DNA from: a virus
Reading direction: 5' to 3' (one strand)
Length of the DNA: 64,000 bases
Virus record (IMG/VR): IMGVR_UViG_2554235236_000002
Every line of letters starts with the position of its first letter. The stretch's first letter is position 1. The position numbers and the translations under genes were made by a program. This document shows positions 29,839 to 44,696 of the stretch, one piece after another. The notes beneath the pieces are model-generated. The model saw nothing but the letters and a program-made list of their open reading frames with translations. It had not been told where the DNA came from and did not search any database.

Positions 29839-30354
29839 TTATAGATACTTATTAGCAGCCTCAAACTCAATTTCATAGTTATGATTTGCTTTTTCAATTG
29901 CATTTGATAAGCGATTCGCCATTCTTTCAAGTTTTAATCCTTTAGATTTCATTTTCTCAGGTTCAAACATGGCTTCACGATAACTCACAACATCAGAATA
30001 TGATGCTAGTCGTTCAGTTTGTTTCGAACGTCCATAGTTTTTAAGTTTATTAGCTTCACCTCTTAGTTGTTGAGCTAACTCAAGAGCTTCCGTTATAGAC
30101 AACTCTTTTTCATCCCATACAACTTTAGCATATAGGTTTGCTTCGGCCATCAACACTACAAGGTCACGATAATCTTTCCTTGCAACTTCCAACTCTGTTG
30201 TGATTTTATCAATAGTTTTTGTTGGTTTAGTGTATGGTTCATCTTTGTCGTGTTCAACATAGGCAACGCTATCTCTTTCTTGCAAGAGTTCTTGAATACG
30301 TTTGGAAATAGTATTTCTTAAAGGGAGAGCTTCAAATAGTGCGATTTTTGACAT
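29839..30354 (-). CDS. DIP1984-like helical/coiled-coil protein
   Basis: LFEALPLRNTISKRIQEL...AEAN...ITEAL...IEKAN pattern recalled for the DIP1984 family. Confidence 0.65.
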   Translation of the reverse strand: MSKIALFEALPLRNTISKRIQELLQERDSVAYVEHDKDEPYTKPTKTIDKITTELEVARKDYRDLVVLMAEANLYAKVVWDEKELSITEALELAQQLRGEANKLKNYGRSKQTERLASYSDVVSYREAMFEPEKMKSKGLKLERMANRLSNAIEKANHNYEIEFEAANKYL

Positions 30355-30412
30355 TCACATCTTCTCCTTTTTCGTTAATAAGGCGACTTGCATCTTGCAA
30401 GACCCTTTTGTA

Positions 30413-30484
30413 CAGGGGCGACAGGGATCGAACCTGCCCACGCGGTTTTGGAGACCGCATCGCCACCGAGGAACATGCGCCCCT
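30413..30484 (-). tRNA. tRNA-Trp (CCA), non-canonical D arm, 3' CCA not encoded
   Basis: Acceptor AGGGGCG/CGCCCCT, anticodon arm GCGGT-CTCCAAA-ACCGC, T arm GCAGG-TTCGATC-CCTGT, discriminator G. Confidence 0.85.
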
Positions 30485-30979
30485 AGGATCGCCTGCGCAC
30501 CGGAAGGCTCGGAAGCACATTCCGGAAAGACCCGTAGGCAACGCAAGCACAAATAGAATAGTTTTGAAAAGACAAGACCGAAAATAATCCTTTTCAGTGA
30601 AAGGGGAGCGGTGATCAAACGCTCAAATGCCAATTCACTTATTTTACGATTATAGAAAAATCGCTAACCCGGAAAAATTTTATGCCTCATTCGAATAGTC
30701 GAAGGGCAGTATTCAGATGAGGAAGACGCATCCGCCTCATCTAAGTGCAAGCCGAAGCTGTACACCGCAATTAATTTAAGACAAAACTGTCACCCATAAT
30801 AAGACTGTGATGGGTTCACCCTACAAAGTAGTTAGTAGCAAAGGTCTTATTGACAGTTTTCGTCCGATAATAGCCACTTGCCTGTCTCCTAGAGATACAG
30901 GCGAGCTAGCTAACCTCGATCCCTCGCAAATGACTATTATCCGACCCACTTCAAATTGAAGTGGAGGGAAGAGGAGTAA

Positions 30980-31129
30980 TTATTCTGAAGAGATTAAACC
31001 AATACTCCTCATATACTCTTCCTCTGAGGCGAAGAAAAGCTCGATCTGTTCTTTGGTAATCGTAATATTGTGCTTCTTTGCATTTTTTAATATTACTTTT
31101 TCTAAATCATCATAGTTAAACTCAACCAA
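30980..31129 (-). CDS. Small protein, 49 aa (MVEFNYDDLEKVILKNAKK...; not in ORF track)
   Basis: AAGGAG RBS, TTG start, directly after HU. Confidence 0.6.
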   Translation of the reverse strand: MVEFNYDDLEKVILKNAKKHNITITKEQIELFFASEEEYMRSIGLISSE

Positions 31130-31149
31130 CAGAATAATTCTCCTTTTAA

Positions 31150-31425
31150 TTATTGTTTGATAGCATCTTTAAGAGCTTTAGCAGCTTTAAATGCTGGTGC
31201 TTTTGTTGCTGGGATTTCAATTTCTTCCCCTGATTGAGGGTTACGCCCCTTGCGTGCAGCACGCTCTCGCACTTCGAAACTGCCAAAACCGTGCACTTTA
31301 ACTTTTTCACCATCTTTTAGAGCAGATGTGATTACATCAAATGTTGAGTCAACAACCAATTCGACATCTTTCTTTGTTAGTTCTGTAGCCTCTGCAACTG
31401 CACCAATTAGTTCTTTTTTATTCAT
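31150..31425 (-). CDS. hupN: HU-family DNA-binding protein
   Basis: MNKKELI...[19 protein letters not shown]. Confidence 0.95.
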
Positions 31426-31530: not shown

Positions 31531-32337
31531 CTAAAGCGTTACATTTCGATGTTTTCTTACTCTTGTCCTTGTTTTTTCTTTTGCTATTACGGATGCACAA
31601 GGTGGGCAGTATTTAGATTTGTTACTTTTAAATCTAAATGGAGTTTGGCAATTGACGCATGATTTAACTTTCTTTTGACCAGTGTGCAGATCATAATAGA
31701 GACCGATACTGTCAAACGATTTTATTTTAATAGCCGTTTCTCCGCCGGGTTCAATACCATAGATAAAACTTAATTTAATAAATCCTTTATTCCGAATTTC
31801 AACAATATCCTTCTTGGCCAATTCGCCAATGTTTTGATGCAGCTTGTTGGCAGTTAGCGAAGTATGAGAAGCATCTATAAGTTCTTTGTATCTTTTGTTG
31901 TTTCCGCCAAAATAGTGTTCTGTTGTATGCTCCCCGTATTTGATGTGATGAACTGTCGAATATAATTTTGCTAAGACAAGAAGGGTAAAGCAGAGCTTTT
32001 TTTGTTGATGGTTGATATCTAAAGAATCAATAAATCGAAGTTCATTCTCCGTTATATCAATTTCATTTGCATTGATTAAAATATTTTCTTTTTTTCTTGC
32101 ATAATTAAGTACCGAATTAATTTTTTTGTAATAAAGAACCCGACTAAAGTTTTCAATGTTCTTTTTGCAGAAATCATAAAGGAGCTCTTCACGTTTTTTA
32201 GGCTTATACCCTAATTCTTTATAGTACATTGCCAATAACTTCAGTTCATAATTGAGGTTCTTTGAAATGAATCCATTTTCAATAATTGCTTCTGCATATT
32301 CTTTCTCTTTAAACTTAAATTTGTCTATCATAGACAC
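31531..32337 (-). CDS. Phage protein with C-terminal zinc ribbon (268 aa)
   Basis: CVNC...CPPC; translationally coupled to yonO. Confidence 0.75.
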   Translation of the reverse strand: MSMIDKFKFKEKEYAEAIIENGFISKNLNYELKLLAMYYKELGYKPKKREELLYDFCKKNIENFSRVLYYKKINSVLNYARKKENILINANEIDITENELRFIDSLDINHQQKKLCFTLLVLAKLYSTVHHIKYGEHTTEHYFGGNNKRYKELIDASHTSLTANKLHQNIGELAKKDIVEIRNKGFIKLSFIYGIEPGGETAIKIKSFDSIGLYYDLHTGQKKVKSCVNCQTPFRFKSNKSKYCPPCASVIAKEKTRTRVRKHRNVTL

Positions 32338-35102
32338 ACCTTTCTTAATGAGTAATGTTTATTAAGGTAGTTGATATCACCTTCTTGATCAAGTACAGGG
32401 ATGTTGAAACTTTTTTGTTTTACTTTTACGTTTTCAAATATGTATTGGCCGTAGAGATGCCATAAAATCTCTTTATTTGAGCTCTTTTCATCAACATAAA
32501 ATAAGCGAACAAGGTAATTAACTGCCTCGTAAATATTGGAGCAAATATCATTGAGTCTTTGTTTGAATAAATCTAGGGAATTGGAGAAATTGCTGCAGAG
32601 ATCTGAATCATATAAATTTTTATCTGTATCACTACTTGTTCCCAATGAAAATGATTGATTAATACTTTTTTTATGTTTTTGATATGCTTTTACTACTTTC
32701 CTGTACCGTGATTCATCAAGTTCAACTGCATCATTCATATAAATCTTGTAAATTTCATCATCGATATCCTTGTTAACAATGTTTCTAATACCAAAGTCAA
32801 CGGATTCAATGTACTTGCAGAGTCTGTTCATTACACAGTCGCTCTCAATCACAGGATTAAACCTTTCAAATAACTTAAGAAATTCATGCTGCTCCTTTGT
32901 TTTTCGTTTTACTTTCTTGAGCTCCTGAAGACTAATCCCAAATTTCTGCTTGCAAGTGATATCATAGGTTTTGACATGTTTTTTGTATTTGTTTTTAGTT
33001 CCTTTGTATAAATAAATAAAAAAGTAGGGGTGTTTATCCAATAAGATTCTATTGTAAAATTCCTTAGCCGTCTTAACATTCTCCGAGTCATCTTTTTTGA
33101 TCTTTTGATAATTAATCCAGCGAGAAGGGATGCCTTTAACTTCTCGTCCAATTTTGGCCTTATCAATTTGAGCACTTTGCAATTTGGTACACATTTTTAC
33201 TCGATTTAATGTGGTGAGATACTCTTCAGAATCAGAATCAAGCTGAGAAAGAAGAGCGTAGCCACTCGTGCTTTTATTAGTGATTGAACCAATAATCGAG
33301 CCAAATGAAAAAAGGTCTGCATTAAATAAATCTTCCTCAGTCAAAACCTTTTTGGTTGAAGTGGGAGGGGTGTAGGCCACTGGCAACTCATTTTTATAAA
33401 CCCCCTTTAATACTGTTTTATCCGAAGTTGTTGCAATAATGTCATAGTCGAAATCACTACCAGCCCAATTCATTGTCTCAGAGCCGTGAACATTCACAAT
33501 GATACCTGTGTAATTATGTCTGTACCAATAATCCATATCTTCAGTTTGCTTTAGATTTAAAATCAAATGTTCGCTGCGATAGGTGAGGGGAGCGCGCATA
33601 CTGTCAACATATTTGATTCCTTTTTGATTCCAATAATTTGAGTAGTATTCACGCTTACCTAAAAGCCCTGTTACCTCTAGCCCACAAACGTGCTGCATCA
33701 TTGCATAGGGATCGCTAACAAGAGTCTGGAAGTTACCATCTAAGATTATATCCCCAAGGCATCCGCGTTGGATTTTCCTTTTCATTAAGTCATAAATTTT
33801 CTTTTTTATGTATTTGTCGTTGATTAAGTCAGGGTTAACTATTAAAGACTTAACCCAATGATTATCAGATTTCTCCATGTAATTCGTAATTTTTTCGTCT
33901 GTGACATCAGTACCCAGCAAAAACAAGATGGTGTAATATATGTTGCCTGAATTGACCCCGGTTATCCAGTTAACGAATTTCTCACAGACTTTTTCAATGT
34001 CTTCATGGTTTAGATTCAGAGTCTGCAAAAATTGATAGTTCATTTTCAAAATGTCTTTATCTTTTTTGGGGCTGTGTAGTGAAACTCCCCATTTCAAATT
34101 GTTCTTTTCACAGTTATTTTCATAAACCTCAATGGAGGGAAAGCTGTCCCAGAGTTTAAATTGGCTTTCAGTGAGGATAACATCAATGTCCCTCAAATCC
34201 ACAATTTTTGGGTTCCCGTTAGAGTCTTTATAAGATGTTCTGATTCTATAATTCCCATTGTTTACTTTTTCGCAAAACTCATGAATGGGGAAGGTGTTAA
34301 GCATTCCTTTGATGAAGTTCTGTCTGATACACCATTGTGCAGGTACATAATCTAAGCCTAATTCATCTGCCCATTTTTTCGCCATCTCATAGCTAATCAA
34401 ACCTTGGCCATCAAAACGGTTAAATGATTCAACAATATCTTTAACTTCGATAATGTCATCATCTTCATAATCTGTTTCTGTCACAAAGTTTACTTTTACT
34501 TTAGTGTCGCTATAATAATCAGGGACTAAACAAAACCGGGGAGAACTAACTACTTGAGTGGCGCTGCCAGCCAATCCCTTATAAGCATTAAACTTAGAAG
34601 GGACTAGGGCTTTATTTAAATCTCTTCCGTTATCCAGGATTTCATTAAGTCTTTTGGATGTCTCTTCTTCGATAAATACAACAGTTGAAACCCTTGCTTG
34701 CCCCGCAGAAGACGAGAATCGAATAAACTTTTTATTATTTAAAGTGAGTCCATTTTTATGTAAATCTTTATAATGACTAGGATGATCCATTTTAATTGTT
34801 ATGTATTCTGGAATAAACAGAATTTCGTTAATTTCATTTTGGATACCCTTCAACTTCTTTGAAATATCCTGTGAATGATTTAGTCTTTGTAAAGTTTCCT
34901 TTTCTTTGTTAAGTGATTCAAGGTATGTGTAGTCAACTTCCTTGTTTTTAATGTCCCTAATAGATCTTAAAATTTGATTATCAAATAAAGCAATAACTTC
35001 GTTGTACTCTTGAGCTTCTTCGAATGATAACGATATATTATAGCCAAACTCTTTAAGTCTAGATGAGTTGAATTTGTATGTATAAAACTGTTTATTCTCC
35101 AA
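32328..35102 (-). CDS. yonO: YonO-type single-subunit DNA-dependent RNA polymerase
   Basis: Catalytic DFDYD motif, RFDGQG, RAP motif; 924 aa at the head of the late arm. Confidence 0.92.
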   Translation of the reverse strand: MENKQFYTYKFNSSRLKEFGYNISLSFEEAQEYNEVIALFDNQILRSIRDIKNKEVDYTYLESLNKEKETLQRLNHSQDISKKLKGIQNEINEILFIPEYITIKMDHPSHYKDLHKNGLTLNNKKFIRFSSSAGQARVSTVVFIEEETSKRLNEILDNGRDLNKALVPSKFNAYKGLAGSATQVVSSPRFCLVPDYYSDTKVKVNFVTETDYEDDDIIEVKDIVESFNRFDGQGLISYEMAKKWADELGLDYVPAQWCIRQNFIKGMLNTFPIHEFCEKVNNGNYRIRTSYKDSNGNPKIVDLRDIDVILTESQFKLWDSFPSIEVYENNCEKNNLKWGVSLHSPKKDKDILKMNYQFLQTLNLNHEDIEKVCEKFVNWITGVNSGNIYYTILFLLGTDVTDEKITNYMEKSDNHWVKSLIVNPDLINDKYIKKKIYDLMKRKIQRGCLGDIILDGNFQTLVSDPYAMMQHVCGLEVTGLLGKREYYSNYWNQKGIKYVDSMRAPLTYRSEHLILNLKQTEDMDYWYRHNYTGIIVNVHGSETMNWAGSDFDYDIIATTSDKTVLKGVYKNELPVAYTPPTSTKKVLTEEDLFNADLFSFGSIIGSITNKSTSGYALLSQLDSDSEEYLTTLNRVKMCTKLQSAQIDKAKIGREVKGIPSRWINYQKIKKDDSENVKTAKEFYNRILLDKHPYFFIYLYKGTKNKYKKHVKTYDITCKQKFGISLQELKKVKRKTKEQHEFLKLFERFNPVIESDCVMNRLCKYIESVDFGIRNIVNKDIDDEIYKIYMNDAVELDESRYRKVVKAYQKHKKSINQSFSLGTSSDTDKNLYDSDLCSNFSNSLDLFKQRLNDICSNIYEAVNYLVRLFYVDEKSSNKEILWHLYGQYIFENVKVKQKSFNIPVLDQEGDINYLNKHYSLRKVCL

Positions 35103-44631: not shown

Positions 44632-44696
44632 AGTCGTGGCGGCGACGTTAAATAGGCATTAAGCCGCCAGCGTTCCCCACATTGGGGAGGTTGCAA
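44632..44696 (+). ncRNA. Pistol self-cleaving ribozyme
   Basis: P1 GUCG/CGAC with loop UGGCGG pseudoknotting to CCGCCA; UUAAAUAG linker; P2 GCA/UGC; UUAAG; GCG; P3 CCCC/GGGG; AGG-U cleavage motif. Confidence 0.9.

Follow-up and report, generated by a model that had tools for sequence, protein, structure and literature searches.

A conserved modular RNA leader in an SPbeta-like Bacillus phage carries an orphan copy of an Abi_2-linked small RNA

We analyzed a gene-free stretch of 500 bases that precedes a tRNA-Trp gene in 64,000 nucleotides of viral DNA (IMG/VR record IMGVR_UViG_2554235236_000002; this whole sequence is hereafter the window) from an SPbeta-like Bacillus phage. This stretch is a conserved, folded RNA leader composed of separable modules. 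One of them, module B, is homologous to a small RNA found beside Abi_2 toxin genes in bacteria and, by analogy with known RNA antitoxins, the phage probably uses it to disarm an AbiD/F-type suicide-nuclease defence. Resident prophages of the host group carry both the toxin gene and the RNA, and only the RNA is found in the SPbeta-like and SPO1-like phages that come in.

All the genes around the gene-free stretch lie on the minus strand, in the following order of transcription:

32328-35102, minus strand: distant homologue of yonO, first in the local order and followed by an ORF of 268 aa
31150-31425, minus strand: HU-like homologue of yonN (Pfam Bac_DNA_binding, E 4e-37; 63% identity with SPBc2 YonN)
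30980-31129, minus strand: ORF of 49 aa between the yonN homologue and the leader
30413-30484, minus strand: tRNA-Trp (CCA) called by ARAGORN, directly 3' of module D
29839-30354, minus strand: ORF of 171 aa without a Pfam match, the first protein gene past the leader
27923-29116, minus strand: homologue of yonJ, after the 171-aa ORF

This arrangement matches the 1.7-kb gap between yonN and yonK of SPbeta, where the order is yonO, yonN, leader, yonK and yonJ. [quoted passage not shown] 2017, PMC5467207). The synteny with SPbeta indicates that the stretch of the window is the head of the late transcript. We bracketed the YonO start site between the two published primers of the primer extension: in SPBc2, the forward primer falls 83 nt ahead of the conserved element, and the reverse primer, which lacks one T relative to SPBc2 and matches it nowhere exactly, corresponds by eye to a word inside module A. 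The start site of the window phage would be the one carried over from SPbeta, a placement that follows from synteny only. A 2021 review of SPbeta contains nothing further on the leader RNA.

Using blastn, we found the leader at about 77% identity in SPBc2, phi3T and ~25 further SPbeta-like phages, and pattern scans revealed many more copies among IMG/VR proviruses. SPbeta-like leaders with modules A-D at 75-86% identity to the window were also present in assemblies of a Streptomyces sp. and a Paenibacillus sp.; these contigs likely represent contamination of non-Bacillus assemblies by B. subtilis-group DNA. Comparison of the ORFs of the window and its relatives revealed no conserved ORF across the gene-free stretch. 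A coding function was rejected: the window contains no equivalent of ORFs 55 and 56, which are annotated on the opposite strand in phi3T. These hypothetical ORFs (phi3T_56 and phi3T_55, positions 2116-2596 of the phi3T locus) cover modules A-C and beyond, and they are probably spurious calls over a structured RNA.

The stretch (501 nt) folds better than dinucleotide shuffles, with z-scores of -3.8 on the minus strand and -5.0 on the plus strand, a result that is hardly decisive alone. The aligned homologues are more informative on strand. With G.U pairs allowed, 97.0% of the cells of module B and 94.4% of those of module A are paired on the minus strand, as compared to 84.2% and 85.0%, respectively, on the plus strand. 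Since G.U pairs are frequent and pairing falls on the opposite strand, the RNA corresponds to the minus strand and runs in the same direction as the tRNA and the genes. The initial annotation, which proposed a structured non-coding RNA beside the tRNA, had read the stems on the plus strand. All the stems that it quoted are indeed present at their plus-strand positions (30783/30851, 30799/30844, 30793/30810, 30867/30931 and 30715/30735), as are the hairpin at 30946-30964 and the GC-rich block at 30490-30545, and its proposal of a non-coding RNA is borne out by conservation: the stems hold in 25-45 homologues and are conserved in SPbeta-like phages, with compensatory substitutions.

Rfam searches, conducted on the whole window at gathering score and on 30300-31200 at E<=10, matched only the tRNA in this region; no family matched the leader in 30300-31200, and the stretch contains none of the DUF3800-type, drum or skipping-rope RNAs. 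Elsewhere in the window, a pistol ribozyme (Rfam RF02679) is located at 44632-44695 on the plus strand, with a score of 61.2 bits relative to a gathering score of 34.5.

From 5' to 3' of the RNA, the leader comprises the following elements:

30946-30964, minus strand: 5' hairpin CCACTTCAA/TTGAAGTGG, seen in the sequence at the head of the conserved element
30862-30945, minus strand: module A1, a 19-bp helix ATAATAGCCA/TGACTATTAT that closes a three-way junction with two small hairpins
30783-30860, minus strand: module A2, an outer and an inner helix with an internal hairpin that varies and possibly a crossing helix
30704-30776, minus strand: module B, two hairpins, an orphan copy of the Abi_2-linked small RNA
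30566-30703, minus strand: module C, three hairpins (at about 30646-30664, 30597-30638 and 30567-30595) with conserved loops and linkers
30485-30565, minus strand: module D, a GC-rich and nearly invariant CCGGAA/TTCCGG domain directly adjoining the tRNA

Modules A, C and D together represent about 85% of the stretch. The words of the 5' hairpin differ in SPBc2 and in two other loci (L006 and L029), where the position is still self-complementary. Module A contains 44 double-change cells, relative to 15.9 in shuffles (0/500), and sliding the structure along the alignment reduced pairing to 34-47%. Helix 1 of module A1 (30867/30931) is paired at 99% across 27 sequences, in which six pairs alternate between A-U and G.U and one alternates between AU and GC. 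In module A2, three pairs of the outer helix (30851-30860 with 30783-30792) are changed on both sides (CG/AU/UA, AU/CG and UA/CG), as is one pair of the inner helix (30844-30850 with 30799-30805; AU/GC). The internal hairpin of A2 appears paired at 62%, a value obtained from a region misaligned by MAFFT. The crossing helix of A2 (30810-30814 with 30793-30797), which would form a pseudoknot, is possible in 27/27 sequences with both sides invariant; it would be sterically tight through its one-nucleotide linker, and its CCC run can pair alternatively with a nearby GGG in one lineage.

Module C presents nine pairs changed on both sides across 26 sequences and is found without modules A and B in other prophage types. 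Our search pattern for this module was too short and returned mostly chance matches. In six loci of non-SPbeta prophages (L122, L089, L102, L111, L123 and L125), a conserved element of ~45 nt lies about 60 nt upstream of module C; this element, absent from the window, may be a further leader module. Module D is conserved among SPbeta-like phages, past a variable insert. We did not detect covariation in the alignment of module D homologues, which suggests that its role may be at the RNA or at the DNA level. Other prophages carry module D by itself, ahead of tRNA-Trp or of the first gene upstream of the terminase; in one locus (L143), it lies directly before a ribosome-binding site, with the large terminase gene about 3 kb downstream. 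Modules C and D look like shared late-leader elements.

We compared each part of the leader with all fetched loci and found five arrangements:

Arrangement 1: modules A, B, C and D, with the tRNA in the lineage of the window
Arrangement 2: modules A and B without C (L008/L019/L028/L053 and L027)
Arrangement 3: modules B and C without A (L009, L011, L036 and L045)
Arrangement 4: modules C and D with the tRNA, without A and B (L122)
Arrangement 5: module D alone, with or without tRNA-Trp, in smaller unrelated prophages (L142-L155)

The same tRNA follows module D in L122, L144, L147, L149 and L154 as well. The distance between modules C and D is 0 nt in the lineage of the window and about 0.6-1.1 kb in SPbeta-type loci, with an insert of about 690 nt in SPbeta and phi3T. 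The insert contains the Rfam RNA DUF3800-VIII in SPBc2 (L001 3494-3559; 47.5 bits), phi3T (L002 2991-3056; 44.7 bits) and a third locus (L008 4267-4332; 58.8 bits), all above the cut-off of 40.2. In this late-leader gap, the DUF3800-VIII RNA directly precedes a terminator-like hairpin, itself followed by module D; the window lacks this RNA.

We further analyzed module B. Its first hairpin (P1) has a UUCG loop and is preceded by a UAAU-type 5' tail; the second (P2) is a hairpin of 8-9 bp (AGATGAGG/CCTCATCT) with the conserved apical sequence GGAUGCGUCU. A covariance model (R1) was built from 15 toxin-adjacent copies only. This model yielded a single match in the 64 kb of the window, at 30704-30776 on the minus strand (66.8 bits; E 3.5e-15 for 192 kb searched), and it scored 62-71 bits on module B of SPBc2, phi3T, Goe3 and phiAGATE. 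Of the 46 positions that do not vary among toxin-linked copies, the copy of the window retains 41, and the five differing positions correspond to compensated changes of the P2 stem or to the loss of the U-run. P1 differs from the toxin-linked consensus by a single change, from U-A to U.G; in P2, the ten apical nucleotides are those of the toxin-linked copies and the stem is fully compensated. The initial annotation assigned the leader to no known class, which agrees with the Rfam searches for the leader as a whole but does not apply to module B, whose membership in the Abi_2-linked family is established by these comparisons.

The alignment of module B contains 108 double-change cells, relative to 41 in shuffles (0/500). 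In this alignment, P1 and the P2 apex never vary, and five pairs of the P2 stem covary. Among the phage copies taken by themselves, P2 is paired at 93.8% by means of about six different stem sequences. This maintenance of pairing through stem variants indicates that the fold of module B is under selection in phages. We found no promoter-like site for module B in the window, and its terminator U-run is replaced (positions 62 and 64). Module B of the window therefore depends on read-through of the leader.

The 64-nt core of module B (30715-30778) is found at 89% identity in SPO1-like myoviruses, inside tRNA clusters. A 27-nt pattern taken from this core matched 44 viral, 19 species-genome and 18 metagenome loci, with genomes and contigs distributed across Bacillota. 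The Rfam model of abiF (RF03085) did not match at E<=10 in 30300-31200 or in an Abi_2 locus (L059), nor at gathering score in 17 loci, which indicates that the module B RNA belongs to a family other than abiF.

Several relatives of this RNA present other features. Four loci (L030 10483-10558, L160, L165 and L171) contain a variant RNA with the same P1 and an unrelated, longer P2 (45-48 bits with R1); these variants have their own promoter and no Abi_2 gene of the clade nearby, and in L030 a FuFi-1 RNA lies 3.5 kb away. In a metagenome locus (L169 1194-1290), a tandem duplicate of P1 precedes a single P2 with a changed apex, and the same apex variant is found in L167. Plasmid pFDU301A of Priestia megaterium carries a free-standing homologue (L068 2514-2587; 77 bits) with a promoter, a terminator and a CUGCGG loop in P1, and no Abi_2 gene of the clade within 2.5 kb. 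Skipping-rope RNAs (RF02924), likewise small RNAs associated with proteins, are present in the same tRNA clusters as module B in Goe3 (L003 2446-2516) and in L015 (3280-3349). Right after module B of Goe3 (L003 1577-1662), we also observed an unannotated tRNA-like stretch, for which ARAGORN makes no call; its acceptor-like closure of 6 bp ends in CCA, and it contains two hairpins of the GGTTCGAT type that resemble T-arms.

In 12 genome or viral loci and 9 metagenome loci, a gene encoding an Abi_2 protein of 324 aa (Pfam E 1e-31) is located about 30-200 nt from the RNA. The bacterial small-RNA gene is composed of sigmaA-like -35 and -10 boxes with 17-nt spacing, a short 5' tail, P1, P2 and a U-run; the promoter is conserved in most toxin-linked loci, and the P2 apex consists there of the conserved ten bases. 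The RNA usually lies downstream of the Abi_2 gene. This order is reversed in L047, L174, L175 and L176, the RNA being upstream in L047 and in the loci of the B. subtilis group. The RNA is far better conserved than the Abi_2 protein (57-100% amino-acid identity), and on an Enterococcus faecalis plasmid it persists beside an Abi_2 with 41% identity. The toxin clade presents an invariant R-x4-H HEPN motif, and its only relative in the PDB is PbAbiF (8VZ6; E 0.008).

We did not find an Abi_2 gene in the window using tblastn and an HMM of the clade, and PF07751 was not detected in the complete records of SPBc2, phi3T, Goe3 and phiAGATE or in that of the nearest provirus (G001). These results indicate that the phage copies of module B are orphans. 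Among 91 species representatives of Bacillaceae, the Abi_2 clade was found in one, and a large protein database contained it in B. subtilis, B. spizizenii, B. inaquosorum and B. zhangzhouensis. We located the Abi_2 gene downstream of a YolD-family gene in two genomes of B. subtilis and in a contig of B. inaquosorum, and the small RNA of these B. subtilis-group cassettes (99 bits) lies about 115 nt upstream of the Abi_2 gene. In one of the two B. subtilis genomes and in B. inaquosorum, the cassette is located between the YolD-family gene and lysis and SPbeta-type tail genes, and a large serine recombinase adjoins it, which indicates that the cassette is prophage cargo there. The downstream side in the second B. 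subtilis genome is instead occupied by an LXG toxin and immunity genes.

Taken together, we consider it reasonably likely that the leader is transcribed late and carries an orphan RNA of the antitoxin type, serving as a decoy. The stretch would constitute the structured, non-coding 5' part of a late transcription unit on the minus strand: a chain of independent modules (A1, A2, B, C and D) ending in tRNA-Trp, where cleavage by RNase P/Z would separate the leader from the mRNA. Module B would be a toxin-less copy of the ~70-nt small RNA which, by analogy with AbiF/RCd22 and AbiF/AbiFr, may be the RNA antitoxin of an Abi_2/AbiD-F HEPN nuclease. Produced in bulk as part of the late leader, it would bind the resident nuclease and hold it inactive, so that the infection would not be aborted. 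For the window phage, we infer each of these steps, from the transcription start and processing to the binding and neutralization of the toxin. Several points count against the decoy: the abiF model of Rfam does not match the RNA, module B of the window has neither a promoter nor a terminator U-run of its own, its late expression might be too late to block an early-acting toxin, and the Abi_2 clade is rare among the Bacillaceae representatives.

The decoy offers a first candidate function for a portion of the "unannotated ncRNA" with which the SPbeta late operon begins. Module B defines a second RNA family partnered with an Abi_2 clade, absent from Rfam (Rfam 15). The toxin cassette is found as prophage cargo in the B. 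subtilis group and the toxin-less copies of SPbeta-like and SPO1-like phages are under structural selection, which offers a directly testable conflict between phage and prophage in the best Gram-positive model organism. HEPN toxins of the AbiF type with RNA antitoxins were characterized only in 2025 and are held to be ancestors of Cas13. We found no published report of a phage RNA decoy against such toxins and, to our knowledge, pseudo-ToxI is the only classical case of RNA antitoxin mimicry.

A broader version of the decoy function, which we regard as doubtful, extends it to the entire leader as a multivalent anti-defence array of RNAs, which the phage polymerase would make in bulk and tRNA processing would release. 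Modules A1, A2, B and C would then each be a decoy for a different RNA-controlled toxin. Such an array would include DUF3800-VIII in SPbeta, and module B together with the skipping-rope RNA among the tRNAs of SPO1-like phages; phage tRNA clusters would double as "RNA counter-defence islands".

Alternatively, the leader may act only in cis, with module B as a borrowed pair of stable hairpins that has no dealings with any toxin. Its roles could include promoter escape or processivity of YonO, protection of the 5' end, processing by RNase III or RNase P, or the timing of translation. The location of the leader, where the late operon begins, fits such roles, as do the recurrence of modules C and D before tRNA-Trp and packaging genes in unrelated prophage types and the lack of a promoter and terminator proper to module B in the window. 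However, module B is free-standing in the tRNA clusters of lytic SPO1-like phages (Goe3, phiAGATE and L015), far from late leaders. Moreover, P1 and the apical loop, which are invariant in the toxin-linked copies, are what the phages keep as the stem drifts. A mere hairpin would not need this conservation of P1 and the apex, which argues against a purely cis-acting leader and makes this explanation unlikely.

It is rather improbable that module B serves immunity among kin, the orphan RNA allowing SPbeta-like phages to coexist with, or to superinfect, relatives that carry the Abi_2 cassette; we give the same low credence to module B being the remnant of a cassette that has lost its toxin and guards the lysogen against toxin genes brought in by recombination. 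The prophages in which the cassette occurs do have lysis and tail genes of the SPbeta type, together with a large serine recombinase, which suggests that the RNA and the cassette circulate in the same phage gene pool. The mechanism would nevertheless be that of the decoy, namely the neutralization of the toxin by the RNA, and only the beneficiary differs. In addition, the copy of the window is in the late leader and not at the cassette site between yolD and the lysis genes, and lytic myoviruses also carry module B.

The initial annotation proposed a large structured RNA of ~500 nt and mentioned GOLLD and ROOL; the corresponding alternative is a single ornate RNA of that kind with a biochemical function of its own. 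The length (~480 nt), the many helices, the possible pseudoknot, the prophage setting and the adjacent tRNA all recall such RNAs, but no Rfam model matches at E<=10, and the modules are shuffled, lost or 0.7-1.1 kb apart in relatives. We also detected no conserved long-range pairing between modules in the alignments, which argues against a single GOLLD/ROOL-type architecture. Given the independent mobility of the modules, we find this alternative very improbable. Least credible of all is a decaying relic or a DNA-level element (promoter, pac or replication signal) without RNA function: module D is conserved in sequence without covariation, but the strand-asymmetric G.U pairing and compensatory changes of modules A, B and C are not expected under this hypothesis, and the structure is retained in phages that are only about 75% identical here.

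We finally compared the leader with known systems. The SPbeta non-coding RNA occupies the same syntenic position, and its modules A, B, C and D are 77-84% identical to those of the window; it differs by ~690 nt more between modules C and D, including DUF3800-VIII, and by the lack of tRNA-Trp, and the publication that describes it (Forrest et al. 2017, PMC5467207) presents neither its sequence nor a structure or function for it. GOLLD (RF01998) and ROOL (RF03087), which are also found in prophages with an adjacent tRNA (PMC5737381), resemble the leader in this setting and in their many helices, but the leader matches neither model and is a mosaic rather than one conserved architecture. The DUF3800-I to -XI, drum and skipping-rope RNAs (Weinberg et al. 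2017, PMC5737381) have structures that differ from those of the leader, although putative orphan copies of DUF3800-VIII and skipping-rope lie beside module B in SPbeta and Goe3, respectively.

The closest parallel on the side of the toxin is provided by the AbiF systems, whose RNA antitoxins have been established at the bench (PMC12373285; review PMC12737573): AbiF toxins are neutralized by a bound, cis-encoded small RNA, as for RCd22 of the C. difficile phage phi027 (PMC12373285), and AbiFr is the non-coding RNA antitoxin of PbAbiF (PDB 8VZ6; review PMC12737573). As in these systems, the family of module B is a small, conserved hairpin RNA beside an R-x4-H Abi_2 gene, in a cassette that is often borne by prophages. 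In contrast to them, it consists of two unlike hairpins rather than repeated abiF hairpins, has its own promoter, usually lies downstream of the toxin gene, and is present in the window without a toxin gene.

Pseudo-ToxI of the Pectobacterium phage PhiTE is reportedly an RNA mimic of the antitoxin of the type III system ToxIN. ToxI itself is made of tandem 36-nt repeats that are cut by ToxN. Pseudo-ToxI thus represents a phage-borne, toxin-less look-alike of an abortive-infection RNA antitoxin, which is the mechanism that we propose here, and module B is likewise a toxin-less phage copy of the RNA partner of a defence system, selected in phages. The two differ in that module B is a single two-hairpin unit, placed in the leader of a late operon, with a HEPN toxin as its putative target.
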